A stretch of DNA of 51,443 bases from an uncultured Desulfocicer sp. Its GTDB lineage: Bacteria; Desulfobacterota; Desulfobacteria; Desulfobacterales; SURF-7. The notes beneath the pieces are model-generated. The model searched no databases. It worked only from the letters and a program-made list of their open reading frames with translations, and had not been told where the DNA came from. Positions 12,037-50,884 of the stretch are shown here, piece after piece; within the stretch, counting starts at the first letter, position 1, and the number at the start of each line of letters is the position of its first letter. A program made the translations under genes and the position numbers. Location: positions 1 through 51,443 of the forward strand of contig CAYTGW010000002.1 in assembly GCA_964437395.1 (NCBI GenBank), written 5' to 3'.

Positions 12037-12076
12037 CGCTGTAGACTGAATTCTTGTATACCCAAAGGAGACCGAA

Positions 12077-18888: not shown

Positions 18889-21429
18889 ATGATGTTTTTG
18901 AATTATTCAAAAACCAAACGGCTCTTGATCCTTATTTCAATGGGGTTGCTTTTTTTCGTGCAGCTCACCGCATGTTTCAGCCTTTGTTTTGCAGCCCCTC
19001 GTCAAAATGTTATCAATCAAATCCGACTTCATGATTCCCCGCAGAGGATGTACCTTAACCTTAATCAGAAATCTCTCTATAAAATCATTCAGGTTGAAAA
19101 AAATGAAATGATCATTGCCTTTAAAGATGTCGGCATCGCGGATAACATTATAAAAAAGGGTTCTACCTCCTCTTTTATTCAAAACATCCGAATTGAAAAA
19201 CTCCAAAATAATGTAACCATGCTCGTGATAAAAACCGCACCGGAATTAAAAAAAACAGATGCCGATTGGGATGGTTTGTCCAATACACTTATTGTGAATT
19301 TCTATTTCGAAAAACAGAAACATAAGAAAAGAAAACCTCTGAAAAAGAAGCCTGATGAGAAACATGCACTCTATAATAATCAATCTGATCCAGATAAACC
19401 GAAGGAAATCATTACGGCGTCTGCCTCCATAAAAAAAGAAATCATTGAGGAACCTACATCGATAAAAGAAGAAGTCAGACCGGATCCACCTTCAGATCTT
19501 AGTGGCGGCAGAATTGATGATATATTAATCGAGTTATCAACAGAAAGCTGTTTGGCAAAATCGGAATTCAAAAAAATTTTTGATGAATTGGCAAATGGCG
19601 ATTGGAAGTCAGCTGAGAATGCGTTAACCGGTTTCCTGAAAACAAACACTATCGAAACCTGTAAGGATCCAGCCTATTTTTTAAGGGCCTATTGTTTCTA
19701 CAAACAAACAGATTCCGATAAAGAAGAAGGCGTATTGGAATCCATTTCGATTTGTCAGGAAGCAGTCAATTATTTTCCAGATTCAAAATATCAACCCTAT
19801 GGAATGACAATTCTCGGAAAGCAATATCTCAAGTTAAACAGCATTGCAGAAGCAAAAGGTTATTTTAAAATTGTTTTGGACAAGTACCCGCAATACAAAG
19901 GCACGCCTGAAATCATTTTTGAACTCGGAATTCTTGATCAGAAAGCAAATTATTCCCGAAGTGCCATCGAACATTTTCAAAAAATTCTCTCAAAATACCC
20001 GAAAAGTGTTTTGGTTGCAGATGCAAATCTTGAACTGGGAAAAACTCTTTTCAAAATGAATAATTTTTCAAAGGCTATAGAACATCTCAACTTTATAATC
20101 AAGGAACACCCTCAAGTAATATATGATTCCTTCGAAGTACTGTTATATATCGGTAACAGTTATTATCATATGGGTAACTACAAGGAGGCCAGAAAAATAT
20201 TGGAAAAAGCATATAATCTTTTTCCGGAAATAGATTCAAGTCATATTGTACTGACCCGAATTGCAGATACACTGGCGGATGAAAACCAAAATGAAAAAGC
20301 AAAAAAATTGTATCAATTGGTGATCAATAAATATCCTGGATCAGATGGATTTGTGATCAGCTCCGTCCGACTTGCCAAATACCTTGCAACTAGAGAAGAA
20401 AAGGAAAAGATTTATAACCTCATTATTGAAAATTATCCGGAAAATCCGATGGCTAACCTGGCCAGGCTTCGAATTGCTGAAATCCAAAACAAGGCCGGTG
20501 AATATAAGCAATCCATTGAAACGATAAACGAGATCTTTCTGAATAATCCCCAGGCGCTAAAACAAGAGGCTCTTTTCCTGAAACAAAATTCTTTTGAATC
20601 CTTATTTAAATGGATGCTTGAAAAGGGGAACTATCCTGAAGTGCTGTCCATTTACGAAAAGGATAAACGATCTCTTGACACTTATGAAAATCCAAACCTC
20701 TTCTCCCTGGTTGGAGAATCTTACTTTCAAGGGCATCTATATGAAGGTGCAGCCAAGCTTCTCCTGGAAGCGGAAAATCAAACAAGAGACACAAAAAAAC
20801 CGGATAAATACACTTATATGCTGGGTATTGCGCTGCAAGAGTCCGGCAACACGGAAAAATCGTTAACGCATTTGAATCGATATATCAAGGAAAACCCCAA
20901 AAGCGAATTTACTTCCGATGCTTTTCGGAGGATTGCGAGAATTGAAAATCTAAAAAAGAACACTCAAAAGGCATCTCAATATTTACAAACCGCATTTGAT
21001 CGGAGCCAGAGTGAAATTGAGAAAGCAGACATTCTAATAGAACATTCGAACTTATATATGAAAAACAATCAATATAAGGAAAGCTCAACGGCACTGATAA
21101 AGGCAATCAACATTTTGTCTTCATCACCGAAAAGTGATAAGGCCATGATACTGGCAGCCTACAGAGAACTAGGGAAGTCGTATATGGTTCTAAATGAATT
21201 TCTCAAGGCTGCAGATGCCTTTGCCATGGCCCTCAAATTTACAGAAGCGGATGAAGATCAAATTGGTTTAAATTTTTTGTTAGGAGAGTCCTTTTCAAAA
21301 GGCAACCATCTGCAAGAAGCATCCAAGGCATATCAAAATGTTGTTTCTTCAGGTGACTCCTTTTGGAGCAAACTTGCGGCAGAAAAACTGAAAGGTCTGC
21401 AGCTCACCGAAAAAATAAAAAATACATGA
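18889..21429 (+). CDS. secreted AMIN-like + multi-TPR protein (846 aa)
   Basis: Signal peptide (..FSLCFA/AP). The N-terminal ~110 aa have an AMIN-like beta pattern, followed by a Lys-rich linker. The rest consists of TPR / YbgF-like repeats (recurrent ..A...F..(I/V)(I/L)..YP......A...LG..). Confidence 0.8.
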   Translation: MMFLNYSKTKRLLILISMGLLFFVQLTACFSLCFAAPRQNVINQIRLHDSPQRMYLNLNQKSLYKIIQVEKNEMIIAFKDVGIADNIIKKGSTSSFIQNIRIEKLQNNVTMLVIKTAPELKKTDADWDGLSNTLIVNFYFEKQKHKKRKPLKKKPDEKHALYNNQSDPDKPKEIITASASIKKEIIEEPTSIKEEVRPDPPSDLSGGRIDDILIELSTESCLAKSEFKKIFDELANGDWKSAENALTGFLKTNTIETCKDPAYFLRAYCFYKQTDSDKEEGVLESISICQEAVNYFPDSKYQPYGMTILGKQYLKLNSIAEAKGYFKIVLDKYPQYKGTPEIIFELGILDQKANYSRSAIEHFQKILSKYPKSVLVADANLELGKTLFKMNNFSKAIEHLNFIIKEHPQVIYDSFEVLLYIGNSYYHMGNYKEARKILEKAYNLFPEIDSSHIVLTRIADTLADENQNEKAKKLYQLVINKYPGSDGFVISSVRLAKYLATREEKEKIYNLIIENYPENPMANLARLRIAEIQNKAGEYKQSIETINEIFLNNPQALKQEALFLKQNSFESLFKWMLEKGNYPEVLSIYEKDKRSLDTYENPNLFSLVGESYFQGHLYEGAAKLLLEAENQTRDTKKPDKYTYMLGIALQESGNTEKSLTHLNRYIKENPKSEFTSDAFRRIARIENLKKNTQKASQYLQTAFDRSQSEIEKADILIEHSNLYMKNNQYKESSTALIKAINILSSSPKSDKAMILAAYRELGKSYMVLNEFLKAADAFAMALKFTEADEDQIGLNFLLGESFSKGNHLQEASKAYQNVVSSGDSFWSKLAAEKLKGLQLTEKIKNT

Positions 21430-22796
21430 ATAATCCGAAAATTCTCATCATTGAAAAAAATATCCGGGAACGTACCCTTTTTTCCAGTCTATTGGAAAAT
21501 TGGGGATATTATGTCACTACTTCCCATGACGGAGAAGATGCGCTGGAAAAAATTCATTCCGAGGAATTTCATCTGGTTATTTCTGATTTTATGTTACCAG
21601 GAGGCTCAAATGGTGTAGATCTGATTCAAAGTATCCTTTCTGTAAGTGATAAAACCCACATTCTATTCATTTCTTTAGAAAGCTCCGTAAAAAATGATGT
21701 GGATGCCATGAAAGCCGGAGCCATCGACTATCTAGTAAAACCCGTTGACGAAGCTCAAATCCAACACATTCTTGAAAAGAATCTGCATGACCACCCAACA
21801 GAGAACAATTCACCATACCGGAAACAAAATGGTAAAGTAACGATTGTCACCAAAAATAAAACCATTATGCAGTTGCTCGATTTATCAAAGCAGGTTGCGA
21901 AAAGTACAGCCTCTGTATTCATTCAGGGAGAAAGCGGAACAGGAAAAGAACTATTTGCACGTTTTATTCATGACTGTAGTAATCGGGAAAAAGGACCCTT
22001 TGTGGCCGTAAACTGCGCCGCTCTTCCTGAGTCACTCCTTGAGAGTGAATTGTTTGGACATGAAAAAGGTTCATTCACCGGTGCAGTATCTCAAAAACCA
22101 GGCAAGTTTGAATTAGCAGATAACGGTACGATACTGCTGGATGAAATAACAGAAATGCAGCTCCACCTCCAGTCCAAACTTTTACGAATCATTCAGGAGC
22201 ATGAGGTGGACAGGGTTGGTGGACTGAAACCAGTAAAAATTGATGTCCGCATCATCGCAACCAGCAATCGAAACATTACCCAGTCGATCAAAGAGGGAAA
22301 ATTCAGAGAAGATCTTTATTTTCGGTTGAATACAATTCCTCTCACCATTCCGCCACTAAGAAAAAGGCCGGAAGATATTGAGCCACTCGCATTATTTTTC
22401 ATTCTTAAATATAACCGAGTCGACGGACGAAATGTCAAAACTTTGACTAAATCTGCTCTGAATACTCTACAAAATCTGAAGCTTAACGGAAACGTCAGAG
22501 AACTGGAAAATATTATTCAGCGAGCGGTATTGCTTTCAGACAATGAGACCATTCAGGAAAAGGATCTTTTTCTTGAAAACCATGATCCGACTTTCCCGGA
22601 CAACCCTCAAAACACTGAAGAACCAGCTGCCAACAGGATTGCCGTACCCTTGAAAGATGTTGAAAAAAAGATGATATTCCAAACGCTTGACCAAACCAAG
22701 GGCAATCGAACACATGCTGCAAAAATACTGGGCATCAGCGTTCGAACACTCAGAAACAAATTAAATGAATACCGGGAAATAATGGAAGTCCTGTAA
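21426..22796 (+). CDS. sigma54-dependent response regulator (NtrC family, FlrC/FleR/FlgR-like)
   Basis: REC (VISDFMLPG, YLVKP), AAA+ ([22 protein letters not shown]) and a Fis-type HTH. ATG 21426 overlaps the stop of the TPR gene (ATGA). Confidence 0.9.
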   Translation: MNNPKILIIEKNIRERTLFSSLLENWGYYVTTSHDGEDALEKIHSEEFHLVISDFMLPGGSNGVDLIQSILSVSDKTHILFISLESSVKNDVDAMKAGAIDYLVKPVDEAQIQHILEKNLHDHPTENNSPYRKQNGKVTIVTKNKTIMQLLDLSKQVAKSTASVFIQGESGTGKELFARFIHDCSNREKGPFVAVNCAALPESLLESELFGHEKGSFTGAVSQKPGKFELADNGTILLDEITEMQLHLQSKLLRIIQEHEVDRVGGLKPVKIDVRIIATSNRNITQSIKEGKFREDLYFRLNTIPLTIPPLRKRPEDIEPLALFFILKYNRVDGRNVKTLTKSALNTLQNLKLNGNVRELENIIQRAVLLSDNETIQEKDLFLENHDPTFPDNPQNTEEPAANRIAVPLKDVEKKMIFQTLDQTKGNRTHAAKILGISVRTLRNKLNEYREIMEVL

Positions 22797-29102: not shown

Positions 29103-29552
29103 ATGAAAAAATTCCGATTTCGTCTTCAATCCTTTCTTGGTTATCGAAAACATCTGGAACAGGAAGCCAAGCAGGCTGTCTCAATAACACAAACCAAAAT
29201 GAATGATTGTAAAAATCGAATCGATGCATACGAAATGAATCAACAAAAAAGTATCACGGAATTATATGATAAAATGTCCACTGGAATTGAAGCAAAGCAG
29301 ATACCCATCTACACTTCCTATCATGATCGACTCAGTTTCATTCTGAAAAATGAAAATATGCAGTATGCTCAATTAAAAAATGAGTTCTCCCATAAACAGA
29401 AAATTCTAAAGCAACGATCCGTGGAAAAAAAAGCCCTGGAAAATTTACAGCAGCGTAAAAAAGAGGAATATTATAAAAAAATTTCCGATTCCCTTCAAAA
29501 GGAATCCGAAGATATGAATATCATACGGAAAATCAGGGATACCCATAAATGA
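29103..29552 (+). CDS. fliJ: flagellar export chaperone-like protein FliJ
   Basis: 149-aa all-helical coiled-coil protein with a FRFRLQSFLGYRKHLE start, in the canonical position after fliI. Confidence 0.75.
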   Translation: MKKFRFRLQSFLGYRKHLEQEAKQAVSITQTKMNDCKNRIDAYEMNQQKSITELYDKMSTGIEAKQIPIYTSYHDRLSFILKNENMQYAQLKNEFSHKQKILKQRSVEKKALENLQQRKKEEYYKKISDSLQKESEDMNIIRKIRDTHK

Positions 29553-30304
29553 AAAAATCTTTCCAGCCTTTTCTCAAACTGCTTTTAATCGGCCTTGTTG
29601 CAACAAAGATCACCGCTTCTTTTTGTTTACTTTCCGATTTTGGTTTTGACTCTGCGCTGTTTCATATTCAACAACTTGCCCATGCAGAGGATCAAAAACA
29701 TGAAGGGCAGAAAAAAACAGAGGAGCAGAAAAAAAATGGAAAACCAGAAGAAAAACCAGAGGACTCGAAAAAACCGGATGAACATAAACAAAATGAAAAA
29801 ATAGAAGAAAAACCTTCATCCGAAGCTACTGCCGCTATACCGGAAAAAGAAGATACGACTACTACAGAAACAAAAGTTATGCTGAAAAGCCTCGAAAAAA
29901 AACGCCTCTTTCTTCAACAGGAAGAAATCCGAATTGGGGAAGAGAGAAAACAGATAGAGGCTTTAAAAGAAGAAATGGAAGAAAACCTCCTGAACCTGTC
30001 GAAAGTCCAAAAACAAATTGAAGAAAAACTGTTATTGATTGAAAAAAAAGAAACTGAAAAAGAACGTCTAAAAAGAGAAGCCAAACAAAAAAAACTGAAA
30101 CAGCTCCTCAAGATATACACGAGCATGAAACCCAAAGATGTTGGTACAATTATTAATAAATTGGATTTTGAAGACGCGTTGACAATCTTCCTCATGATGA
30201 AAGGTGATCAGGCTGCTAAAATACTGACCTATGTAAATACTGAACTTGCTGTAAAAATCAGTGAACAACTCATTAATGAAAAAAATCGTGTCCAGCCAAA
30301 ATGA
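29549..30304 (+). CDS. MgtE-N/FlbB-type flagellar protein (Bacillus YlxF / spirochaete FlbB position)
   Basis: N-terminal TM, a K/E-rich coiled coil, and a C-terminal MKPKDVGTIINKLDFEDALTIFLMMKGDQAAKIL MgtE-intracellular-N-like motif. ATGA overlap with fliJ. Confidence 0.7.
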   Translation: MKKSFQPFLKLLLIGLVATKITASFCLLSDFGFDSALFHIQQLAHAEDQKHEGQKKTEEQKKNGKPEEKPEDSKKPDEHKQNEKIEEKPSSEATAAIPEKEDTTTTETKVMLKSLEKKRLFLQQEEIRIGEERKQIEALKEEMEENLLNLSKVQKQIEEKLLLIEKKETEKERLKREAKQKKLKQLLKIYTSMKPKDVGTIINKLDFEDALTIFLMMKGDQAAKILTYVNTELAVKISEQLINEKNRVQPK

Positions 30305-32279: not shown

Positions 32280-32342
32280 TGACCGTCATCTTTTTTTATT
32301 ATAATAATTGTCCGATCATTCGATTTTCCTATGGAGGATAAA

Positions 32343-33053
32343 ATGAACGTAACTCAAACCGCATACGGAAACAGCAACATAAATAAACTTTTTACCGGGC
32401 ATACCGAAGAAGTTGAGGAAAAAAAAGACCCCTTGGGAAGAGATGCTTTTTTAACCATGCTGGTGGCTCAACTTCGAAATCAAGATCCGTTGAATCCCAT
32501 GGAAGGAACAGATTTCACAGCCCAATTAGCCGAATTTTCAGCACTTGAACAGCAATTTACTATCAATGATAATCTGGAAGCGATACTCGATGCGCTAAAA
32601 CCCAAAACCCAGGATAATCTGATGGATTTTATCGGTAAAGAGGTCATGGGAGAATCCAATACCATATCCTCTTCAAATGGAAGTACCACCACTGGATACT
32701 ACACCATTGAAGACTCAGCCGATGTTGCGATTGCCATTTACGATCAAGAAGGAACCTTGATTCAAAATATTTATTCTGGCCAAAAAGAGGCCGGAACACA
32801 CCCCATCCAATGGGATGGTAAAAATCTGGAAGGAGCGATAGTACCGGATGGCACCTACAATTTCGAAATTATGGCCTTGAATGACATCGGAGGATATATT
32901 GAGGCCAAAACCACCGTAGAAGGAAAAGTAACCGGTGTAACCTATGAACATGATATTCCGTATCTTCAGATCGGGGATAGACTTCTGGATCCTTCGACGG
33001 TTACAAGAATACTTCTACCCCCGGAAGAGGATGAAGCAGCCGAGAGTACCTGA
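32343..33053 (+). CDS. flgD: flagellar hook capping/assembly protein FlgD
   Basis: DAFLTMLVAQLRNQDPLNPM signature and a FlgD Ig-like C-terminal domain. GGAGGA precedes ATG 32343. ATG 32331 is an in-frame alternative. Confidence 0.92.
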   Translation: MNVTQTAYGNSNINKLFTGHTEEVEEKKDPLGRDAFLTMLVAQLRNQDPLNPMEGTDFTAQLAEFSALEQQFTINDNLEAILDALKPKTQDNLMDFIGKEVMGESNTISSSNGSTTTGYYTIEDSADVAIAIYDQEGTLIQNIYSGQKEAGTHPIQWDGKNLEGAIVPDGTYNFEIMALNDIGGYIEAKTTVEGKVTGVTYEHDIPYLQIGDRLLDPSTVTRILLPPEEDEAAEST

Positions 33054-33102: not shown

Positions 33103-36100
33103 ATGTCTCTAACCAGCTCATTGTTCTCAGGAATCAGCGGAATGACCAACCTGGGAAATGCCATGCAAATCATCGGTGATAATATCGCAAATGTCAATAC
33201 AACCGCATTTAAAGGCAGTAATTATGTTTTTCAGGATCTCCTGAGTCAACAAATTGCAACTCAGTCGGGTACAGCCCAGGTAGGACGAGGTATGGCACTT
33301 GGAGAAGTTGCTTCTGTTTTCGAACAGGGATCGTTTGAGTCTACCGGAAATACAACTGATCTGGCCATTGGCGGCGATGGTTTTTTTGTTCTTCGGGAAT
33401 CCACATCAGAAGAGTTATATTATTCCAGAGCCGGAAATTTTAAATTCGACCGGGACGGAGTTTTAATTAACTCGGTGGGATATGTTGCTCAGGGTTGGGC
33501 GCTGGATGATGATGGCGATGAGGTCGGTTCCGTTACCGATATCAAGCTGGCCTCCTTTACCTCACCGCCCAAAATAAGTGAAAGTCTCACCATGATAACC
33601 AATCTGGATTCTGACGCACTCAGTCAATCTGTTGTTCTGGCAAATGCATGGGATGCGGAAGAAACAACTCCCATAGTCGGTTCCGCTTATAATTATCAAT
33701 CGGTTGTAAAGGTATATGATTCACTTGGAAGTACCCACGATATTACCATCTATTATGACAAACAATCCGAATCCAAATGGGAGTACATTGTCACCTGTAA
33801 TCCGGAAGAAGATAAAAGGGGACTGGTTCAGGAAACTTCCGCAAAAGGGCTCCTGGCAAAGGGGGAAATTACATTCTCGGACAGCAGTGGAACAATTTCC
33901 AACCTGACCATGAGGCAATTTACCGGCAGAATCGGAAATATTTCTGCCGACGGAGCCATCACAAATGAGACAACCAATTTTACCATCAACAATTATGATG
34001 CTCTGTCTCTGGATGGATATAATTTCAGTCTTGAATTCGATGGAACCAACTGGTCTTTTGAAGATTCTGCAGCACCCATTGGTGCATTAACTGCTTCCGA
34101 TCTTCCGACAAATTACCCGTTTGCCACTATTATAAGTGGTGATGCCAACGGTATTCAGATTAATCTGGACGGAGATACGGACAGAACAGCCGACCTTACC
34201 ATCTCATTTTCAACACCAGCCCAGGCCACTGATGCACTGACTTTTGATATTATCAGTCCGCAGAATATTCATATTCAGGATGTGATCAACACCCAATATA
34301 TTGGAGATACCGGAAACGAAAATACCCAGCTTGATATCAACCATCCGGAAGTTCTGACCACTGACTCCTCAGATTTGCGTATCAATTGGGATGCCAGTGA
34401 ACAGGACTGGTATTGGGCAATGCCTCTGCTTCAAAACGTTACAACTATGAATACAGCCAGTTTATCACCCGCTGCCCTGACCGGATCAGTCAATGTAACC
34501 AATGCTTCCGTCATGACCAGTTATTCTGAAGATACTACCGTATGGTTTGACAACAATACCGGTCTCTGGAATTTTATCTCTCCCTATGCCCGGGATTTAA
34601 CCAATCAGAGCTACACCGGAGGCATTACCGAAGCAAACACCTCCATTTTGGTAGCAGATCCTACAGTTTTGGAAAACCATTCCACCGGTATTACACTTGC
34701 CTGGGACAATATCGTGGGAATGACCAATCTTGCATACAGCAACACCAGTGGATCTAATGAAATCCTTGCAACCAATACAACTGTAACCGTTTCCCAGGAA
34801 GAAAACTTTACAAGGGATTCCAGCATTACCTATATTCTGGAATATGATGGAGTAGGAGATACCTGGGGTTGGGGAGCCGGTGGAGATCCGGTAGTGGATT
34901 ATTTGAGCAGACAAACTCCTACATGGGATTCGGTTTCCCAGCGTTTAAGTGTTGATCTTTCCGGTTCGGGAGCAGATTTCCTAGTCGACTTTTCTTTTGC
35001 CGGCGGCCTAACCGCAGCTTCTGACGGAGATACCATTTCCTTCCAAATTGATGCCGATGGCGCTTGGACCTGGGCCATGCCGACCTATAGTATTTCCAGT
35101 ACCACCGGTGGTGTTGTTTCGACCAACATAACTGGAAATATTTCTTCCTCTCTTACTGCACCTGCAGCTTACTATGATTCATCTTCGGATGTGGGCGGAC
35201 CTGAATATAATCTGGTTTTTACCAGTGCTACCAACACCTGGAGCTGGGATGCTGCCGGACACACTCCTGCCACAGGAGGTGCGGGAGCGACAACCGGTTC
35301 CTATGATTCTGAAACCTTTATCGTAAACAACGAAAATGAGGTTTCCATTGATCTTGACGCTGATGGTTTGGCCGATGTCACCTACACCTTTACGATCCCT
35401 TTAACCGCAGACGGCACCTTGAATTTTTCCATTGATGCAATCGGCAATCCTCCACCCGAATATTCTTCTGCGAGTATCTCCTCCACTTCAGGATCCGACA
35501 TATTGAGCATTGATATGACCGGAAACGGAACCTCGGATCTGGTGTTAAGCTTTCTCTCCCCCTTAAACTCCAACGGTACCATCACTTTTGATGTTGATAC
35601 CCATATTCCACCGTTCGAATACCCAAATGCCTCCATTGACAATGTTTCTTCGAATGCCAGTGCTCTCTATATGGACCTGAATGGAGACAGCATCAATGAT
35701 ATCAATTTTTCATTTCTTGCTGCAGGAATACCCCAGTCCCTGACTGGTAACGGAACATTTGTCTTTGATATCGATCCCAGGGTTCCGCCGACTGAATACT
35801 CCTATGCGACCATCTCCGGTGATACGGATGAAGTTATGATTGACTTGAACAATGATGGTGAAGATGACATCACTTTCACTTTTCTCACACCTTTACCAAC
35901 TGGAGCATCCGCACAGGATAGTGCCATCACATTTGATATTGAGGGAACAACTGCATGGACTGCCGTCCCTACGAATTCAAACGGGTATTACGAATTTATG
36001 GTGGATTTCCAGGGAGGCGAAATCGGTGTGACCGAGAACGACCTGGAGTTCAACATTGGTACCAAGGATGATGGAACCGGTCAATTTATCAATGATTCTC

Positions 36101-36522
36101 TCACAACCACTCAATATGCACGGTCATCTACAACGACATTCCAATCCGCCGATGGATATGGAGCAGGTGATCTTGAAGGAGTTGATGTGGATACGGACGG
36201 CTCCATGACCGGCATCTATTCAAATGGTCAACTTATACCGCTTTACCGCATCGCTCTCGCCCATTTTCTGAATGAGCATGGACTATCCAAACTGGGAGGC
36301 AACCTGTATCGTGAAACCAGGGACAGTGGAACCGCCATCACCAATAAACCAGGCACAAACGGTCTTGGAAGCATTACACCCAACTCTCTAGAACAGTCTA
36401 ATGTAGATATTGCCAACGAATTCGTAAAGATGATTACTACCCAGCGGGCTTTCCAGGCTAACTCGAAAATTGTGACCACTGTCGATGCCATGCTTGGTGA
36501 AGTGATCAATATGAAACGGTAA
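33103..36522 (+). CDS. flgE: flagellar hook protein FlgE, giant form (1139 aa)
   Basis: Canonical N-terminus (LFSGISGMTNLGNAMQIIGDNIANVNTTAFKG) and C-terminus (SLEQSNVDIANEFVKMITTQRAFQANSKIV). It follows flgD. About 700 aa of extra sequence lie between the conserved blocks. Confidence 0.9.
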   Translation: MSLTSSLFSGISGMTNLGNAMQIIGDNIANVNTTAFKGSNYVFQDLLSQQIATQSGTAQVGRGMALGEVASVFEQGSFESTGNTTDLAIGGDGFFVLRESTSEELYYSRAGNFKFDRDGVLINSVGYVAQGWALDDDGDEVGSVTDIKLASFTSPPKISESLTMITNLDSDALSQSVVLANAWDAEETTPIVGSAYNYQSVVKVYDSLGSTHDITIYYDKQSESKWEYIVTCNPEEDKRGLVQETSAKGLLAKGEITFSDSSGTISNLTMRQFTGRIGNISADGAITNETTNFTINNYDALSLDGYNFSLEFDGTNWSFEDSAAPIGALTASDLPTNYPFATIISGDANGIQINLDGDTDRTADLTISFSTPAQATDALTFDIISPQNIHIQDVINTQYIGDTGNENTQLDINHPEVLTTDSSDLRINWDASEQDWYWAMPLLQNVTTMNTASLSPAALTGSVNVTNASVMTSYSEDTTVWFDNNTGLWNFISPYARDLTNQSYTGGITEANTSILVADPTVLENHSTGITLAWDNIVGMTNLAYSNTSGSNEILATNTTVTVSQEENFTRDSSITYILEYDGVGDTWGWGAGGDPVVDYLSRQTPTWDSVSQRLSVDLSGSGADFLVDFSFAGGLTAASDGDTISFQIDADGAWTWAMPTYSISSTTGGVVSTNITGNISSSLTAPAAYYDSSSDVGGPEYNLVFTSATNTWSWDAAGHTPATGGAGATTGSYDSETFIVNNENEVSIDLDADGLADVTYTFTIPLTADGTLNFSIDAIGNPPPEYSSASISSTSGSDILSIDMTGNGTSDLVLSFLSPLNSNGTITFDVDTHIPPFEYPNASIDNVSSNASALYMDLNGDSINDINFSFLAAGIPQSLTGNGTFVFDIDPRVPPTEYSYATISGDTDEVMIDLNNDGEDDITFTFLTPLPTGASAQDSAITFDIEGTTAWTAVPTNSNGYYEFMVDFQGGEIGVTENDLEFNIGTKDDGTGQFINDSLTTTQYARSSTTTFQSADGYGAGDLEGVDVDTDGSMTGIYSNGQLIPLYRIALAHFLNEHGLSKLGGNLYRETRDSGTAITNKPGTNGLGSITPNSLEQSNVDIANEFVKMITTQRAFQANSKIVTTVDAMLGEVINMKR
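35341..35946 (+). repeat. four tandem ~53-56-aa coding modules inside flgE
   Basis: The modules begin at 35341, ~35500, ~35662 and ~35831. Pattern: (I/M)DL(D/N)xDGxxD(V/I)xF(T/S)F..(8-12)..G(T/A)(I/L)xFx(I/V)D....PPxEY.xA(S/T)I. More diverged copies occur near 34150-34258 and 34942-35057. Confidence 0.85.
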
Positions 36523-36556
36523 ACAATCGTAAGCACCTGAATTCTGTCCGATATAA

Positions 36557-36597
36557 ATCAGGAAAAGAAGTCTCTTTCTTTTCCTGATTTTTTTTAT
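36557..36597 (+). terminator. rho-independent terminator after flgE
   Basis: A 13-bp stem (ATCAGGAAAAGAA at 36557-36569 with TTCTTTTCCTGAT at 36576-36588), a 6-nt loop, then a T9 run. Confidence 0.85.
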
Positions 36598-36732
36598 CCA
36601 TTTTTCAAGTGTGCATGCTGAAGCCACTCTGTTTTCTTCTTTTTCACTGGTAAGGGGTGTTGTTCCCACTTCACTACTGCCGGTTTCATTTATATCAATG
36701 TCTCATATCTTTATTGAGATTCTCATTATGGT

Positions 36733-37029
36733 ATGGTACAAGCCGGAGCTATGATCTGGCTGGCGGATGTCACGGCATCTGTTCTTGCATTAATCGGAAA
36801 GAGTGTTGGGGATGATGGAAAGGGTTTTCCTCTGGCGATTGATCTTCATACAACGCTGATCAGCAACCAGAAAGATGGAGAAATCAAAGCAGAAGCCCGA
36901 TTTGTTCGCAGAGGCCAAAATGTCCTGGTGATCAGAACGACAATCATTAGAAATGGCAATCGCTTATTGGCAGAAGTTACTTCAACGCATCTATTCGCTC
37001 ATTCGAGTGCTTTCGCCAGACCCGCGTGA
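36733..37029 (+). pseudogene. N-terminally truncated PaaI/4HBT hotdog-fold thioesterase remnant
   Basis: GMVQAGAMIWLADVTAS aligns with the N.xGxxHGG....LAD core of PaaI-type thioesterases, followed by the ..A.A....GR.... strands. About 40 N-terminal residues and the HGG motif are missing. No RBS. Confidence 0.45.
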
Positions 37030-37180
37030 TGTAATAGTCTGTATCCAAAACGAATACCCAATGGCGATTCAGAACCATCCCCTCAATCATCAGGATCATC
37101 CAGGGGGAAAAGGTTGAGAATGTCGATCAAGCTCATATTGTAAATCTCTTATTTGAGCTAATTTCAAAACTATTAAAAAG

Positions 37181-37255
37181 CGTCACACCGGCGAAAGTCG
37201 GTGCCCAGAAAAGAGCCGAAAATACTGGATAGCGCTACGCTTCACTGCGTGTCTA
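37181..37255. repeat. possible short interspersed palindromic element
   Basis: GTCACACCGGCGAAAGTCGGTGCCCAG ... CTGGATAGCGCTACGCTTCACTGCGTGTC. There is a local CACCG/CGGTG hairpin at 37186-37203. By eye the architecture resembles small dispersed REP/MITE-like elements. It lies just downstream of the minus-strand repeat-protein gene. Confidence 0.25.
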
Positions 37256-37311
37256 GTTTTCACCGGAACTACAACAACAGACTTTTGAAATTGGCTCATT
37301 TGAAATGGAAC

Positions 37312-38547
37312 TTATGTAATTATAACGGTGATTGTGGTTACATCCGCTGCACCGTTTTTATCCGTTACCGTAAGTGTGATCAGATGTTCTCCAACAGAGA
37401 GAATTGATATACTGAAACTTGTTCCCGTGCCGATGAATCCATCCAGATCCGATGTCCATACAAGGGAAGCTCCATATAAATTGCCATCCTCGGCGTCAAT
37501 ACCGGTTCCGGTGAAAATCACTAAGGAACCGCTGGCATATGAAGATGCGGTGGCTGGATTGGTAATGGTTGCGGTTGGAACGGTATTCTCCACGGTAACA
37601 ATAACTGAATCGGTTCCGGTCGCACCATTGCTATCGGTTGCAACCAGGGTAATGGTATGGTCACCACTGGAAAGATAGGCTACGGTTGATGAATTACCAA
37701 TCCCAATCCTTCCGTCTTTATTGGAAATCCATTCCAGCGCTTCACCATCAAGAGAACCATCTTCCGTATCGGTTCCGGTACCGTTAAATGTAATGGACTC
37801 CCCTTCAAAAATCGACACGTCTGCAGATGGAACAATTATGGTTGCCGTGGGAGCTGTATTGCCGATTGTGATTATGACAGATGCGACACCCGTGGTATCC
37901 GCACTGTCAATGGCCTGAAGCTGAATGGTATGACTGCCTACTGACAGGGTGTTGGTCGTGAAGGCGTTTCCAATTCCAATCTGGCCATCCAGATTGGAAT
38001 TCCAGATCAATGAAAAATCTTTGAGAGATCCGTCTTCCGAATCGCTTCCTGAACCACTGAAGGTTATGTAATCTCCTTGGCTGAAACTGCTCGCAGTAAC
38101 CGGAGAAGCAATCGTAGCCGTCGGAATCGTGTTGCCTATCGGGTTCACAATTACATTTATGGCCGTACTTCCGGTTCCACCACTGGTATCCGTCACAGTG
38201 AGAGTGATCACATGTGTACCGTTTGATAAGGAAACATTCCGCATGGACGTACCGATGCCCAGCATGCCATCCTTGCTCGAATGCCATTCCAAGGCTCCTC
38301 CGGTCAGTGTTCCGTTTTCTGAATCGGTTCCGGACCCGGAAAAAGTAACTTTATCATTTTCACTGAATGCTGCATTATCTTCCGGAGTCCTGATCGTTGC
38401 TGTGGGTAATGTGTTGAGTCCCTGTGGTGTAATGGGTTCCTCCATTTCATCCCCACTCGTACCGATAATGCTGACCAGTCCGATTATGATTGCTGACCCC
38501 AACAGGAAACTACGAAAAACAGTATAGATAATTTTTTTGATTTTCAT
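37312..38547 (-). CDS. secreted/anchored protein made of four tandem Ig-like (Big/PKD-like) domains
   Basis: N-terminal hydrophobic segment (FRSFLLGSAIIIGLVSIIG), then four 88-94-aa repeats. Each repeat has PTATI...P......F..G..(I/V)TF(S/N/T)G(S/T)G.D.E(D/N)G.L....L.W.S..DG.(I/L)G.G.......LS.G.H.I.L...D..G. It lies 58 nt downstream of the FlgP-like gene on the same strand. Confidence 0.8.
   Translation of the reverse strand: MKIKKIIYTVFRSFLLGSAIIIGLVSIIGTSGDEMEEPITPQGLNTLPTATIRTPEDNAAFSENDKVTFSGSGTDSENGTLTGGALEWHSSKDGMLGIGTSMRNVSLSNGTHVITLTVTDTSGGTGSTAINVIVNPIGNTIPTATIASPVTASSFSQGDYITFSGSGSDSEDGSLKDFSLIWNSNLDGQIGIGNAFTTNTLSVGSHTIQLQAIDSADTTGVASVIITIGNTAPTATIIVPSADVSIFEGESITFNGTGTDTEDGSLDGEALEWISNKDGRIGIGNSSTVAYLSSGDHTITLVATDSNGATGTDSVIVTVENTVPTATITNPATASSYASGSLVIFTGTGIDAEDGNLYGASLVWTSDLDGFIGTGTSFSISILSVGEHLITLTVTDKNGAADVTTITVIIT
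37315..38409 (-). repeat. 4 x ~273-282-nt tandem coding repeats (Ig-like domains)
   Basis: PTATI starts at residues 48, 142, 233 and 324 of the 411-aa protein, giving periods of 94, 91 and 91 aa. The several long antisense ORFs across this interval are shadows of the repeat. Confidence 0.85.
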
Positions 38548-38605
38548 GATTTTGAAAACTCCTGTGTCTGTGTTTTAAGCGCACAAAAATCAAGATGAAG
38601 AATAG

Positions 38606-39277
38606 CTACTCTTCGGCAAGGGCTGACCCTGCCAGAGATCCTGCAGTTGCGCCAATGGCCATGGCACCGGGAGTTCCGCCCAAAGCATCTAGAGTGACGG
38701 AGCTCTGACCGAGTGCCGTTCCAGTAGCTGATCCTGCTGCTGCTCCGGCAGCACCACCACCCAGTGATCCCAAAAGGCTTCTTGAAAAAAATGAACCATC
38801 GTAAAACTTGAACTCTCGAGGCGCCATATATATTTTTACGGTTGCATTTGCCACTCCGTCTTTAAAGCTGACAAAATTCACCTGTGCTCCGCGGAGATAA
38901 GCATTTGTTTCACTGGTTACCTGGTCAACAGAAATGTTGTTATAACCCGCAGCAGAATAGGCATTGATGATCATCCCGGCCACCCGCTCTGAAATTTTTC
39001 GGTACCCGTCGATTACAGCAGCTCTTTCGGCCATCAATTTTTTCTGCTGAGGTGACCCGGTTTCAGGCTCGATTCCCTGTCCGCGGACACTGATCAAAAT
39101 TTTTTGCGAAGCTTCTTCCGGTTCCAGTCCTGGAATCAGATTTAACGCACTGTTGTTCATCGTGGTTTGATATTTTATAATTTCATGGCTGGTTGAACAT
39201 CCAGTAAAAAGCAGGAGTAAGGATACCATAAAGACTGGCATCCATTTACGTTTTGATACACCACATTCCATTTGCAT
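38606..39277 (-). CDS. flgP: FlgP/LPP20-family lipoprotein with a C-terminal Gly/Ala-rich (glycine-zipper-like) tail
   Basis: Signal peptide plus lipobox (KRKWMPVFMVSLLLLFTGC). LPP20-type core (GQG....Q.KLMAERAAVIDGYRKISERVAGMII......V..V.......LRGAQV......DG.A.ATVKI). AAGGAGA lies 7 nt before ATG 39277. A sigma54 promoter lies upstream. Confidence 0.7.
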   Translation of the reverse strand: MQMECGVSKRKWMPVFMVSLLLLFTGCSTSHEIIKYQTTMNNSALNLIPGLEPEEASQKILISVRGQGIEPETGSPQQKKLMAERAAVIDGYRKISERVAGMIINAYSAAGYNNISVDQVTSETNAYLRGAQVNFVSFKDGVANATVKIYMAPREFKFYDGSFFSRSLLGSLGGGAAGAAAGSATGTALGQSSVTLDALGGTPGAMAIGATAGSLAGSALAEE

Positions 39278-39341
39278 AGTCTGTTCTCCTTAAGAGATAT
39301 GGGTGATCCTTCAGTCAAATCAGGGCTTACAACAAAGGATA

Positions 39342-39356
39342 GCAAAGGCTGTGCCA
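39342..39356 (-). promoter_or_regulatory. sigma54 promoter (-24/-12), minus strand, for the flgP-like operon
   Basis: The reverse complement reads TGGCAC-agcct-TTGC(T), 65 nt upstream of ATG 39277. Confidence 0.72.
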
Positions 39357-39664
39357 TACAAAATATTATCAATTTTTCACATCATTTTAATTCGTTACAG
39401 AAATAACCCAGAAGAATCGCCCTTTCAGAATGCGGAAATTCATTCCAGGAACAGCAAGATTTTCCGGGAAAGTATGATCATCCATTGTATTGGGCAACCT
39501 GCCAACAAAAATAATGGAATTGAGTTTCTGGTTTCGTCATTATCTTGACATTGCACAAACAGGATTGACATGATTCCTCCTGCCCATGGATGATAATTTT
39601 TCCCTGAGTATAACAACTGACTGATAATGCATGACTTTTATTCATCCAACAAGCTGCATGGGCT

Positions 39665-39679
39665 TGGCATGGAGATTGC
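39665..39679 (+). promoter_or_regulatory. sigma54 promoter (-24/-12) for the motA operon
   Basis: TGGCAT-ggaga-TTGC(T), 88 nt upstream of the motA ATG. It is divergent from the 39342 promoter. Confidence 0.7.
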
Positions 39680-39766
39680 TTTTTGGTGATAGATAATAGA
39701 CATCAATCATGAAACAATTTTATTAACCTGCATAAACTTCCCAAGCATAATCGTAAGAGAAAAAAA

Positions 39767-40531
39767 ATGGATATTGCAACACTGCTCGGAACCATCTCCG
39801 CATTTGGTCTGGTAATCCTGGCTATTTATATGGGTGGTGGTATCTTACTATTCATTGATGCACCTTCACTCATGATCGTTGTTGGAGGAACATTCGGAGC
39901 AACCATGATCAACTATCCGATCCGGGATGTCCTCGGTGCTTTAAGAGTGGTAAAAAACGTCTTTTTCACAAACCCCCTGCCCATTGGAGAGATTGCCGGA
40001 AAATTTGTAACCTTTGCCGGAAAAGCCAGACGTGAAGGAATATTGTCACTGGAATCCGATCTCCAATCCATCCCGGATGATTTCTTAAAAAAAGGATTAC
40101 AGCTTTCTGTTGATGGAATTGAACCACAATCCATACAGGAAATTATGGAAACCGAAATCAATTTTTTACATGAGCGGCATCAGCTTGGAGCCGAAATATT
40201 TACAACCATGGGGTCATTTGCACCTGCTCTTGGAATGGTTGGCACCCTGATCGGACTGGTTCAGATGCTTCAATCCATGGATGATCCAAATTCCATCGGG
40301 CCAGCCATGGCTGTTGCCTTATTAACCACTTTCTACGGATCAATACTTGCAAATCTTGTATTTATGCCGGTTGCCGGCAAATTGCGAACCCGAAGCAAAG
40401 AAGAAATTCTGATAAAGGCAATGATTGTTCAAGGCGTTATCGCTCTTTCCCGTGGAGACAATCCACGACTGCTTGAACAAAAACTACTTTCATTCTTAGC
40501 ACCCAAATTCCGGGAAAGTGCATTTAAATAA
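39767..40531 (+). CDS. motA: flagellar stator protein MotA
   Basis: Four-TM MotA/TolQ/ExbB topology with the C-terminal motif GPAMAVALLTTFYG..LAN. 254 aa. Confidence 0.93.
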   Translation: MDIATLLGTISAFGLVILAIYMGGGILLFIDAPSLMIVVGGTFGATMINYPIRDVLGALRVVKNVFFTNPLPIGEIAGKFVTFAGKARREGILSLESDLQSIPDDFLKKGLQLSVDGIEPQSIQEIMETEINFLHERHQLGAEIFTTMGSFAPALGMVGTLIGLVQMLQSMDDPNSIGPAMAVALLTTFYGSILANLVFMPVAGKLRTRSKEEILIKAMIVQGVIALSRGDNPRLLEQKLLSFLAPKFRESAFK

Positions 40532-47703: not shown

Positions 47704-49803
47704 ATGAAAAATGAAATCATCAAAACGCTGAAGGACCTCGTAAAAGACTCATCAGACATGGCAATGGTGGTTGCCGTGATTGGTATCCTCTGTGCGATGC
47801 TGTTGCCACTCCATCCGGTGATACTGGATCTTTTATTGGCGCTGAACATAACCATCGCAATCATTATCCTCATCACTACCATGTATACGATTTCACCATT
47901 GGAATTTTCAATTTTTCCATCTGTCCTGCTGGTGATTACCCTGTTCCGCCTTGCATTGAATGTTGCCTCAACCCGTCTGATTCTTCTGCATGGCAGTGAA
48001 GGAAGCCTGGCAGCGGGAGCCATTATCAAATCTTTTGGCAGCTTTGTTGTCGGAGGCAATTATGTTATCGGAATGATCATCTTTGTCATTCTGGTCTTGA
48101 TTAATTTTATTGTTATCACCAAAGGCTCCGGCCGGATCGCTGAAGTTGCCGCCCGGTTTACACTGGATGGAATGCCCGGCAAACAAATGGCCATTGACGC
48201 GGATTTAAATGCCGGCATTATTGATGAAAATGAAGCCCGTGAACGGAGAAAAATGATTGCAAAAGAGTCGGAATTCCACGGTGCAATGGATGGTGCAAGC
48301 AAGTTTGTGCGCGGGGATGCCATTGCCGGAATTATTATCACTGCAATCAATATTATCGGCGGATTTGTAATTGGTGTGTTTCAACAAGACATGAGTATGA
48401 TTGATGCGGCAAAAAACTACACTCTGCTTACGGTGGGTGATGGTCTTGTTACTCAGATCCCGGCACTCATTATCTCCACCTCTGCCGGTCTTCTCGTATC
48501 CCGGGCAGCATCAGAAGATCGAATGGGCAAAGAATTTTTAAAACATATTTTTTCCACCCCAAATCCCATATACATTGGAGCGATTATCGTCTTCATGCTC
48601 GGGATGGTTCCCGGATTACCAGCCTTTCCCTTTATGACTCTCTCGATGATTCTCATCGGAACAGTTTACTATTATCACAATGTATCCGGAAAAAAGAAGA
48701 GAGAAGCACTGCCTGAAGAGGCTGGTAAAGAAAAAACTGCACCTACCGGACCCGAAGAGGTTGAACACTTATTAACCCTTGACGCAATGGAACTTGAGGT
48801 TGGTTATGGATTGATACCGCTGGTTGACAGTGAACAAACCGGTGATCTTTTGGGTCGAATTCGAGCCATTCGAAGACAGTTTGCAACCGAGATTGGAATC
48901 ATCATTCCGCCGATTCATATCCGTGATAACCTCAAATTAAAGCCTTCTGAATATCGACTGCTGATTAAAGGTGTCCAGATGGCTGGTGCCGAGCTTATGG
49001 TAAATCATCTCCTGGCCATGGACCCCGGTAATGTTACCCGGAAGATAGAAGGAATTCCCACAACAGAACCTGCATTCAACCTTCCGGCATTATGGATTCC
49101 GCCGGAAAGGGAAGAGGATGCCAAATTTAATGGATATACCGTTGTTGACAACTCTACGGTTATTGCTACCCATCTTACTGAAGTGATCCGGAATAATGCT
49201 TCAGACCTTCTGGGAAGACAGGAAGTACAACATCTTCTTGATAATCTTGCAAAAACCTATCCAAAAGCGGTTGAGGAGCTGGTTCCGGCGCAACTTCCCC
49301 TTGGCATACTTCAAAAAGTATTACAGAATCTTTTACGGGAAAGAGTATCCATCCGGGACTTATTAACAATTGTCGAGGTGCTTGCGGATTATGCTTCAAA
49401 AAGCAAAGATCCGGATCTACTGACAGAATATGTAAGGCAAAAATTAGCCCGATCCATGCTAAGCCCCTATGTTCAGGATGAAGGTGTGCTACCTGTTATC
49501 ACTGTTGATCAGGAAGTGGAAAATGTTCTTTCTAAATCCATACAGCATACGGAACACGGATCATACCTTGCTGCAGAGCCCAAGATCGTGGATTCAATTG
49601 TGGGTTCCATTAAAGAGGAGATTGAAAAAATTATGGCGATCAGCATTCAGCCGATCATTCTCTGTTCTCCTGTATTGAGGCGTCACCTGAGAAAACTTGT
49701 AGAACAATTTGCGCCATCTGTGTTTGTTTTTTCGCATGCTGAAATTCAGCAGAACATTCATGTTAAATCAACCGGTAAGGTAATGTTACGACATGGTCGT
49801 TAG
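47704..49803 (+). CDS. flhA: flagellar export gate protein FlhA
   Basis: FHIPEP family: RFTLDGMPGKQMAIDADL, FVRGDAIAGIII, and the cytoplasmic C-terminal ring domain. 699 aa. AGGAG RBS. Confidence 0.97.
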   Translation: MKNEIIKTLKDLVKDSSDMAMVVAVIGILCAMLLPLHPVILDLLLALNITIAIIILITTMYTISPLEFSIFPSVLLVITLFRLALNVASTRLILLHGSEGSLAAGAIIKSFGSFVVGGNYVIGMIIFVILVLINFIVITKGSGRIAEVAARFTLDGMPGKQMAIDADLNAGIIDENEARERRKMIAKESEFHGAMDGASKFVRGDAIAGIIITAINIIGGFVIGVFQQDMSMIDAAKNYTLLTVGDGLVTQIPALIISTSAGLLVSRAASEDRMGKEFLKHIFSTPNPIYIGAIIVFMLGMVPGLPAFPFMTLSMILIGTVYYYHNVSGKKKREALPEEAGKEKTAPTGPEEVEHLLTLDAMELEVGYGLIPLVDSEQTGDLLGRIRAIRRQFATEIGIIIPPIHIRDNLKLKPSEYRLLIKGVQMAGAELMVNHLLAMDPGNVTRKIEGIPTTEPAFNLPALWIPPEREEDAKFNGYTVVDNSTVIATHLTEVIRNNASDLLGRQEVQHLLDNLAKTYPKAVEELVPAQLPLGILQKVLQNLLRERVSIRDLLTIVEVLADYASKSKDPDLLTEYVRQKLARSMLSPYVQDEGVLPVITVDQEVENVLSKSIQHTEHGSYLAAEPKIVDSIVGSIKEEIEKIMAISIQPIILCSPVLRRHLRKLVEQFAPSVFVFSHAEIQQNIHVKSTGKVMLRHGR

Positions 49804-50884
49804 AAAATATCAAACAAAAAGTATCCAGGAAGGGGTCAGTAAAATCAAAAAAGAACTGGGCCCGAATGCGATGATACTGTCTACAAAATGTATTCGAAAA
49901 AACACCGTAGATCCATACGGAAAAGATCGATTTGAAATTACCGCGATTCCAGGTCAGTCAGCGGAGGAAGGTTATCCAAAAAATACAAAAACCATCCGTG
50001 AGGAAATCGCAAGCATCAAAGAAGTGCTGTTCCTGCTTGCTCAGCCAAATGGGCTCCCTGAAGCGTTTCAAAGCTGCCCGGACAGTTTCAAGATGTATTC
50101 CAGCCTCATCCGATCCGGAATCTCTGAAAAACGGGTCAACCATTTTTTTCATAAAGCGTTCCAGAATCCGGCCAATCAAAATCTAAAGAATGTCGAAATT
50201 GCCAAACAGATTTACAAAACTGTTTTTGATTCCATTACAGTATCCAACCCATTTCAAACAAATTATGGTCCAAAGCCTTCCGAAACGCCAAAGTTCGCCG
50301 TACTAATCGGCCCGACCGGTGTCGGCAAAACCACTACCATTGCCAAACTGGCTGCCGATCTTTGTTTACAACAAAGAAAAAAGGTTGGGCTCATCTCTGT
50401 TGACAATTATCGGATCGGTGCGGTTGAACAACTGAAAACATATGCATCCATCATCGGGATTCCCTGCTTGACCGCATTTTCAAAAGAAGACATAACCGCC
50501 GCAATTTACAAACTCAAAAACAGGGATTTTGTACTGGTGGATACAGCAGGTCACAGCCACCTGGATAAAGAAAGAATGGCCGAGCTTGTCTCTCTTCTGA
50601 GTGAAAAATTTTCCGGCTCCTGCCATCTGGTTCTAAGTGCGACAACCAAACAACCGGATATGAAAGATGCTGTTAAATACTTTTCCAGCTTAAACCCGCA
50701 AACATACATATTCACAAAAATCGATGAAACCAGACAACGTGGAGGAATCCTTGACCAGATTCTTGATTATGCACTTCCGATCTCCTTTGTGACAACCGGT
50801 CAGAAAGTACCGGAAGACATTATCGCTGCAACAAAGCAGAATATTTCGAGGCTGATATTTAACCGCAGCCGGTATTTATCTTAG
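49793..50884 (+). CDS. flhF: flagellar SRP-type GTPase FlhF
   Basis: NG domain with GPTGVGKTTTIAKLA, DTAGHS and TKIDET motifs. The start overlaps the end of flhA. Confidence 0.9.
   Translation: MVVRKYQTKSIQEGVSKIKKELGPNAMILSTKCIRKNTVDPYGKDRFEITAIPGQSAEEGYPKNTKTIREEIASIKEVLFLLAQPNGLPEAFQSCPDSFKMYSSLIRSGISEKRVNHFFHKAFQNPANQNLKNVEIAKQIYKTVFDSITVSNPFQTNYGPKPSETPKFAVLIGPTGVGKTTTIAKLAADLCLQQRKKVGLISVDNYRIGAVEQLKTYASIIGIPCLTAFSKEDITAAIYKLKNRDFVLVDTAGHSHLDKERMAELVSLLSEKFSGSCHLVLSATTKQPDMKDAVKYFSSLNPQTYIFTKIDETRQRGGILDQILDYALPISFVTTGQKVPEDIIAATKQNISRLIFNRSRYLS

Follow-up and report, generated by a model that had tools for sequence, protein, structure and literature searches.

A divergent sigma54-type operon in a Desulfobacterales flagellar cluster encodes an LPP20/FlgP-superfamily lipoprotein and a PKD-repeat protein, probably an undescribed add-on to the flagellar motor

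The window analysed here is a stretch of 51,443 nucleotides from an uncultured Desulfocicer sp. (contig CAYTGW010000002.1, positions 1 to 51,443) that carries a cluster of flagellar genes. Within this cluster, the gap of 3244 nt between flgE and motA contains two open reading frames (ORFs) on the minus strand, 58 nt apart; the first encodes a lipoprotein and the second a protein built of immunoglobulin (Ig)-like repeats of the PKD type. We conclude that these two proteins probably constitute a previously undescribed addition to the flagellar motor. An earlier reading, made from the DNA letters alone (below, the sequence-only reading), had described the succession flgD-flgE and then motA, with a block of ~3.2 kb read on the opposite strand in between, and had placed in that block a near-perfect sigma54 promoter, a strong ribosome-binding site, a lipoprotein gene with the lipobox LFTGC and, 58 nt downstream, a gene for a 411-amino acid (aa) protein of four Ig-like repeats. 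The ORF layout confirmed this arrangement, the promoter, ribosome-binding site and lipobox were all found, and the repeats score as PKD domains above Pfam thresholds. The size of the gap was also correct, but not its reading on one strand throughout: the minus-strand part is confined to 37312-39356, and the remainder (36523-37311) contains the terminator of flgE, what remains of a truncated thioesterase gene on the plus strand, and a small element resembling a miniature inverted-repeat transposable element (MITE). The features of the locus are the following.

32331-33053, plus strand: flgD
33103-36522, plus strand: flgE
37185-37204, minus strand: terminator-like hairpin with a T-run, ~110 nt past the PKD stop codon, inside the MITE-like element at 37154-37298
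37312-38547, minus strand: PKD-repeat gene, 411 aa, product exported or membrane-anchored
37315-38415, minus strand: four PKD repeats (residues 45-138, 139-229, 230-320 and 321-411)
38449-38547, minus strand: N-terminal hydrophobic segment of the PKD protein (residues 1-33), with a conserved GL-SIIGTSGDE motif and no Cys
38606-39277, minus strand: lipoprotein gene, 223 aa, LPP20/FlgP superfamily, long form
38609-38800, minus strand: Gly/Ala-rich, glycine-zipper-like tail of the lipoprotein (residues 160-223)
38807-39112, minus strand: SHS2/LPP20-like core of the lipoprotein (residues 56-157), with the AERAAVIDGYRK helix and the RGAQV strand
39197-39277, minus strand: lipoprotein signal peptide and lipobox LFTG-C27 (residues 1-27)
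39286-39291, minus strand: ribosome-binding site AAGGAG, 8 nt before the lipoprotein ATG, kept in relatives
39341-39356, minus strand: sigma54-type promoter (-24 TGGCAC / -12 TTGCT), TGGCACAGCCTTTGCT, read in the sequence, serving the lipoprotein-PKD operon
39433-39466, no strand assigned: inverted repeat CGGAAA-N22-TTTCCG, candidate enhancer (activator-binding) site, 77-110 nt upstream of the lipoprotein promoter
39665-39680, plus strand: divergent sigma54-type promoter before motA, with a conserved GCTTGGCATGGAGATTGCT block, back to back with the lipoprotein promoter
39767-40531, plus strand: motA

Among the homologues of the lipoprotein, Cys27 is invariant, both in an alignment of 28 sequences and in one of 86, and the residue at position +2 is Ser, not Asp. 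The 28-sequence alignment also shows conservation of a LIPGxEPEE motif, of the core (AERAAVIDGYRK...RGAQ) and, in most members, of the Gly/Ala-rich tail. A large protein database contributed 60 close homologues, all from Desulfobacterales or Thermodesulfobacteriota; none is named, the entries being labelled ‘hypothetical protein’ or carrying no name. When the profile of the 28-sequence family was compared with the PDB, it matched FlgP of Campylobacter jejuni (9hmf_C, ‘lipoprotein, putative’; E = 3.1e-11) over ~100 residues (60-161 of FlgP), with one single-residue gap in 101 positions, and FlgP of Vibrio with E-values ranging up to 4e-4 (8z5n, 1.2e-5; V. cholerae FlgP in 9yfg and 9yds, 1.8e-4). 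This significant similarity to FlgP is a property of the family profile; the single sequence showed none when compared with Pfam or NCBIfam. Lpp20 of Helicobacter pylori was not matched at E<=10 in the same profile search of the PDB. The next-best genome matches are gyrA-flgP-flgQ-flgR loci of Sulfuricurvum, with products 32-37% identical to the window lipoprotein, in the gene order of the C. jejuni flgP locus. An exhaustive profile search returned 1198 relatives at E<=0.001, and the long architecture is found in only ~5 of their clusters (at 50% identity). The LPP20/FlgP relationship put forward in the sequence-only reading is upheld by the family profile and by the Foldseek comparisons described below; it failed on the Pfam side, where the window protein did not match PF02169 (LPP20) at E<=10 and is thus below the gathering threshold. 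Six of the 28 family members, scanned singly, gave weak, sub-threshold LPP20 matches (best E = 0.0022). We conclude that the window lipoprotein belongs to the LPP20/FlgP superfamily, because its profile matches FlgP, its structural models match FlgP, Lpp20 and FlgT, and PF02169 is present in distant relatives of the family. Of the proteins with a solved structure, FlgP comes closest to it in both sequence and fold.

The structural comparison was based on two AlphaFold2 (AF2) monomer models, obtained from the 28- and the 86-sequence alignments. The core is modelled at a predicted local distance difference test score (pLDDT) of 85-95 and has an SHS2-like fold, that is, a three-stranded sheet with a helix across one face; for both models, the top PDB match given by Foldseek is 9hmf_A, the FlgP of the C. 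jejuni motor, and next come Lpp20, FlgT and Tip-alpha. FlgP is set apart from other SHS2 proteins by a ring-building beta-hairpin inserted between the helix and strand 2 (PMC12222027); the corresponding segment of the window lipoprotein has the same length and aligns without gaps to FlgP of C. jejuni and of Sulfuricurvum. The C-terminal tail contains 15 Gly and 15 Ala in 63 residues, is mildly hydrophobic and is modelled as a helical hairpin (pLDDT ~57-76). Its matches to glycine-zipper families of Pfam are all sub-threshold (PF13441, PF13488 and PF05433 in 9, 4 and 2 of the 28 members, respectively; best E = 0.052). Every flagellar-linked homologue possesses the tail, and short paralogs are devoid of it. 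In the alignments, little of the solved FlgP chains extends past the shared core, so that they have no comparable tail; nor did a fusion of a glycine-zipper tail to an LPP20 core turn up elsewhere in the searches made.

The 411-aa protein starts with a hydrophobic segment, the hydropathy of which peaks at 1.9-2.0; because this segment contains no Cys, it is read as a signal peptide or signal anchor. Residues G23, I27, T30 and D33 are invariant across 14 orthologues, and in distant loci the motif takes the form IVATS or IVATG followed by an acidic run. An acidic linker connects the segment to the repeats, which are 91-94 aa long and display 43-54% pairwise identity. Three to four stretches of the protein were recognized by Pfam families above their cut-offs: PKD_4 (E = 7e-17; 61.6 bits for a cut-off of 27), K319L-like_PKD (2e-14; 54.0 bits for 27) and PKD (2e-14; 53.5 bits for 23.5). 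Tandem Repeats Finder detected no DNA-level tandem repeat in the gene; the PKD repeats are old. In a sequence search of the PDB, the protein matched PKD domains of collagenases only, with no motor component and no flagellar accessory protein of solved structure among the hits, in agreement with the sequence-only reading, in which the partner of the lipoprotein resembled none of FlgQ, FlgO and FlgT. Orthologues of 411-415 aa share contigs with orthologues of the lipoprotein.

Targeted look-ups and a scan of species-representative genomes led to 15 distinct loci, the window included, that encode the long form of the lipoprotein; the carriers include a cultured organism, Desulfobotulus alkaliphilus ASO4-4 (locus L017). 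In 14 of the 15, a flagellar operon starts directly next to the lipoprotein gene and runs divergently from it. The linkage to flagellar genes is therefore a feature of the relatives as well, as the sequence-only reading required, and it persists down to 44% identity. The operon on the other side is motA-motB'-motB-fliL-fliM in the window's clade and a sister group, and fliK-flgD-flgE in Desulfobotulus and others. The location ‘between flgE and motA’ proved to be specific to the window's clade; elsewhere the flagellar neighbours are different, the gene being divergent from fliK-flgD-flgE, or from motA with no flgE nearby. One or more PKD-repeat genes follow the lipoprotein gene, again in 14 of the 15 loci. 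Outside the window's clade there is usually a gene for a 320-415-aa protein with the same N-terminal motif, and then one for a 900-1300-aa protein consisting entirely of Ig/PKD repeats; the latter, present in most other lineages, is missing from the window locus. Two loci, L003 and L007, have small ORFs between the lipoprotein and PKD genes (125 and 169 aa) that belong to no Pfam family, have no equivalent in the window and look like small membrane proteins.

The same genomes also encode a short lipoprotein paralog (L004, L005, L016 and L020-L028) of 150-170 aa, without the Gly-rich tail, the gene of which is divergent from that of a conserved exported protein of ~150-199 aa. Short-paralog loci are never near flagellar or PKD genes and have no sigma54 motif.

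The promoter read at 39341-39356 is an exact sigma54 consensus, with GG at -24, GC at -12, the TGGCAC-N5-TTGC spacing and a suitable distance to the gene (the TTGCT ends 64 nt before the ATG). This promoter and that of motA share one intergenic region of 490 nt; an alignment of this region from five related genomes revealed conservation of both promoters, of the ribosome-binding site and of two internal blocks, one of them the inverted repeat at 39433-39466. The pattern TGGCAY-N6-TGCW was found four times in the window for 0.43 expected, a number reached in none of 100 shuffles, and all four occurrences precede flagellar operons: at 18748 (the TPR/activator/flgBC operon, TPR standing for tetratricopeptide repeat), 30516 (fliK-flgD-flgE), 39341 on the minus strand (lipoprotein) and 39665 (motA). 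Two sigma54 activator genes lie within the same cluster, at 17546-18538 and 21363-22796. Across genomes, a sigma54 motif is present 72-187 nt upstream of the gene in 15/15 long-form loci, in contrast to 0/11 short-paralog loci; from the information content of the motif, a chance match is estimated at ~5e-4 per 560-nt upstream region. As far as motifs can tell, the claim that the operon is of sigma54 type is thus supported, and its expression in vivo would presumably depend on sigma54.

Possible regulatory sites were also noted upstream of these promoters. The inverted repeat CGGAAA-N22-TTTCCG is the sole match to this pattern in the window (0.10 expected), and the block containing it is conserved in four relatives. 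A mirror-type TTTCCG/CGGAAA repeat occurs at 18597-18626, upstream of the 18748 promoter. Such inverted repeats stand ~80-150 nt upstream of two sigma54 promoters, and the window has a single occurrence of each pattern, for 0.08-0.10 expected. An activator of the sigma54 promoters may bind there, but this is suggestive only. A search for an enhancer motif common to the four sigma54 promoters of the window brought out only a loose TTTCCG/CGGAAA inverted-repeat theme that is not significant for all four. The longest perfectly conserved block of the motA-lipoprotein intergenic region in the five genomes is ATCATGTCAATCCTGTTTGTGCAATGTCAAGATAATGACG (minus strand, region 39520-39560); it holds two ATGTCAA direct repeats and may be a regulator or IHF site.

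We consider it very likely that the operon belongs to the flagellar regulon, because its promoter type and its divergent position are conserved and the core of the lipoprotein is FlgP-like. Beyond this, the interpretation that we favour, and regard as fairly probable, is that of a two-gene operon of the sigma54-dependent flagellar regulon which would provide a motor accessory made of an FlgP-type outer-membrane lipoprotein structure and a PKD protein. No other single explanation accounts for the pair as well as a role at the outer-membrane end of the basal body; the two proteins would presumably have a part in motility. The lipoprotein, which carries its lipid on Cys27 and has the outer membrane as its probable destination, would oligomerise beneath that membrane, around the L/P-ring region, as a ring or disk of FlgP type, by analogy with FlgP itself; its glycine-zipper-like tail would dip into the inner leaflet. 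The PKD protein would decorate this structure, or extend it into the periplasm, through a contact between the two proteins, and in most related lineages the 900-1300-aa PKD protein would join it. A more specific picture can be drawn, in which a lipoprotein ring fastened by its glycine-zipper tail carries strings of PKD/Ig domains (from the 320-415-aa protein and mostly also from the 900-1300-aa one) that form a collar or cage, a structure so far unseen in Desulfobacterales motors. We offer this picture as a tentative one, with a lesser chance of being right.

Several observations weigh against the favoured interpretation: (i) the 223-aa lipoprotein taken alone matches no family in Pfam or NCBIfam, neither LPP20 nor FlgP, (ii) per-domain profile scores are higher for short paralogs and other single-domain lipoproteins (158-244 bits) than for Campylobacterota FlgP (68-76 bits), (iii) residues 117-128, which correspond to the FlgP hairpin region, are modelled as a helix in both AF2 monomer models (pLDDT 85-88 in the deeper one), (iv) a 44%-identical PKD protein (P0071) is found in a non-flagellar context, the repeat type being a generic one, and (v) two loci depart from the common organization. 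The higher-scoring relatives in (ii) are non-flagellar; they include the short paralogs P0056, P0057, P0060 and P0228, and also P0245, which adjoins an outer-membrane beta-barrel protein gene, and all the closer LPP20 relatives whose gene context was examined, P0245 included, lie in non-flagellar surroundings (for P0256, an intermediate relative, the contigs are too short to judge). Because such non-flagellar LPP20 lipoproteins score closer than Campylobacterota FlgP, orthology of the window lipoprotein to FlgP is not established; it is just as possible that an LPP20 lipoprotein was recruited independently to the flagellar regulon, in which case assembly in the manner of FlgP is not guaranteed. 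As to (v), only 2.9 kb of upstream sequence is available for the 15th long-form locus, L015, and it contains no flagellar gene. In L011, an unrelated gene on the opposite strand (10474-12450), which encodes a 658-aa multi-pass membrane protein, stands in place of the PKD gene, and the lipoprotein is truncated at residue 182, within the tail; this could be gene loss or an assembly artefact.

Points (ii) to (iv) also speak for a rival reading, in which the operon would specify a co-regulated envelope or adhesion module: a structure at the surface or in the periplasm, serving for instance in attachment or in reinforcing the envelope, that is switched on together with flagella and has no place in the basal body. 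Repeats of the PKD type typically occur in proteins that are secreted or lie at the cell surface, non-flagellar loci encode the closest PKD proteins other than orthologues, in sequence the lipoprotein is nearest to non-flagellar proteins and the FlgP hairpin is absent from the model; H. pylori Lpp20, which gave the LPP20 family its name, is not known to be a motor part or to be linked to flagellar genes. Against such a module, the divergent position next to the start of a flagellar operon has survived several rearrangements of the cluster, the promoter type is that of flagellar operons, and the best solved matches by sequence and by fold are FlgP proteins residing in motors; on balance we judge it rather unlikely. 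The possibility of a transient factor, which would assist L/P-ring formation or the passage of the hook through the outer membrane in the manner of FlgQ, with the PKD protein as accessory or passenger, appears less probable again. It would accord with the co-regulation with hook (fliK-flgD-flgE) and stator genes and with the loss of the PKD gene in L011, and there is a precedent in C. jejuni FlgQ, which is needed for disk assembly yet unseen in the structure (PMC12222027); but the whole core aligns with FlgP, a structural protein, and with no known chaperone, and the combination of lipid anchor and hydrophobic tail points to a protein that stays in the membrane permanently. Finally, an unrelated operon could have come to lie in a gap of the cluster behind a fortuitous sigma54-like motif. 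The debris in the same gap and the variation of the exact position between lineages would fit such a chance neighbourhood, which is nonetheless highly improbable given the linkage in 14 of the 15 loci, even at 44% identity, and a motif that accompanies all long-form genes and none of the paralogs, at the rarity estimated above.

Much of the variation among flagellar motors in torque, stability and sheath formation is explained by accessory rings and disks, the components of which are known mainly from Campylobacterota, Vibrio and spirochaetes. The locus supplies candidates for Desulfobacterales, namely an FlgP-superfamily lipoprotein with a putative membrane-embedding tail and its PKD-repeat partners, and the promoter type places them in the same putative sigma54 regulon as hook and stator genes. 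The novelty lies in the C-terminal module and the partners of an FlgP-type lipoprotein, and in its occurrence in a lineage for which none was known. In a BLAST survey by Chaban et al. (2018), none of the known accessories had been detected in delta-proteobacteria (PMC5758724). We found no relevant description in the literature of FlgP in Desulfobacter, Desulfobacterota or Desulfobacterales, or of Desulfovibrio motor tomography, and in a literature search the term ‘PKD domain’ did not occur in those top-ranked papers that dealt with flagellar motors. The locus also bears on evolution: either the FlgP-type disk is ancient, or LPP20 lipoproteins were recruited to motors more than once. Should the collar or cage of PKD domains exist, it would be the first motor accessory based on Ig repeats, with an LPP20-family lipoprotein acting in the motor of a lineage in which BLAST had detected no known accessories (PMC5758724).

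The rest of the flgE-motA gap was inspected as well. The hairpin at 37185-37204 is the probable end of the operon. It lies inside a 145-bp element (37154-37298) with 16-nt terminal inverted repeats (TGAGCYAATTTCAAAA) that begins 14 nt past the PKD stop codon; a 90%-identical copy is present at another site in a relative (L009, 9651-9794, between motA and the lipoprotein gene), and from its sequence the element looks like a miniature mobile element. The plus-strand ORF at 36733-37029 encodes a truncated hotdog-fold thioesterase that covers positions 38-115 of a 117-position model, with a stop codon just upstream, and is probably a gene remnant. Among close relatives, flgE and the PKD gene are separated by a spacer of ~355 to 790 bp. 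We reject a recent insertion of the whole block: conservation of the operon extends to relatives with as little as 44% identity, and nothing looks mobile except the 145-bp element that follows the PKD gene.

The surrounding cluster comprises, in the order of the window ORFs, cheX, a response regulator gene, a sigma54 activator gene, the gene of an 846-aa TPR protein, a response-regulator/sigma54 activator gene, flgB and flgC, and continues with fliF, fliG, fliH, fliI, fliJ, fliK, flgD, flgE, motA, a MotB-like gene, motB, fliL, fliM, fliN and fliO. The Pfam scan covered 40 window ORFs and left out fliE, fliQ, fliP, fliR, flhB, flhA, the last ORF (49793-50884) and ORFs below ~110 aa. The flgB gene, the ORF of which has no Pfam match, was assigned from its position, and fliP, fliR, flhB and flhA, which follow fliO, from position and conserved tblastn matches. 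FlgE has 1139 aa, with rod/hook domains at both ends; it is of similar size in L006 (1137 aa) and L011 (1139 aa), and has 915-942 aa in Desulfobotulus-type loci. In the segment 39767-42104 (plus strand), motA is followed by two genes of the OmpA family, one for a 274-aa MotB-like protein with a weak plug match and one for a 248-aa MotB in which the plug is clear; L001 and L007 have the same triple. The 846-aa TPR protein (18748-21429, plus strand) is encoded behind a sigma54 motif and before the response-regulator/sigma54 activator and flgB/flgC. It recalls TPR motor scaffolds such as PflA, MotK and a Bdellovibrio protein (the latter in PMC5758724); a sequence search of the PDB, in which a relationship to PflA/PflB was sought, gave generic and designed TPR proteins only. 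Between fliJ and fliK, where other flagellar operons have genes for little-known motor proteins, there is a 251-aa ORF (29549-30304, plus strand) with no Pfam match.

It remains to compare the pair with the systems that it most resembles. In Campylobacter, FlgP forms the basal disk's concentric rings from a lipidated subunit, and in Vibrio it forms a lipidated 58-mer ring that is part of the H-ring (PMC12222027, PMC13521929). With C. jejuni FlgP (9hmf), the window lipoprotein shares a lipobox, the SHS2/LPP20 core, the rank of best PDB fold match and the fact of being encoded with flagellar genes; it differs in showing only ~30-37% identity to Campylobacterota FlgP, in having no adjacent flgQ and PKD partners instead, in its extra Gly/Ala-rich tail of 60 residues and in the hairpin segment being modelled as a helix. 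The FlgP/FlgO/FlgT H-ring of Vibrio (8z5n, 9yds, 9yfg; FlgT, 3w1e) likewise has a lipidated FlgP-type subunit with a C-terminal extension, which in Vibrio binds FlgT (PMC13521929), and FlgT is among the fold matches. The Vibrio extension is a short loop, unlike the glycine-zipper-like hydrophobic hairpin of the window protein, and none of FlgQ, FlgO, FlgT, MotX and MotY was found among the 40 scanned ORFs, a scan confined to the window and not extending to the rest of the genome.

Lpp20 of H. pylori (HP1456; PF02169) is of the same fold class (Foldseek ranks 2-3), and the short paralogs are non-flagellar as Lpp20 is; the difference is in sequence, the window lipoprotein having no PF02169 score and the family profile not reaching Lpp20. 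Glycine-zipper lipoproteins of the SlyB/Pcp type (Gly-zipper_YMGG, Gly-zipper_Omp, Rick_17kDa_Anti) are similar in combining a lipid anchor with a Gly/Ala-rich hydrophobic hairpin, but the Pfam matches to them are sub-threshold only. The 411-aa protein, for its part, resembles other PKD proteins (PF18911, PF00801 and PF22352) in its four repeats, which exceed the thresholds, and among solved structures it is closest to PKD domains from clostridial collagenases. It differs from other PKD proteins in that it has no catalytic or other domain, begins with the IIGTSGDE motif and is encoded at a fixed place beside a flagellar lipoprotein gene.

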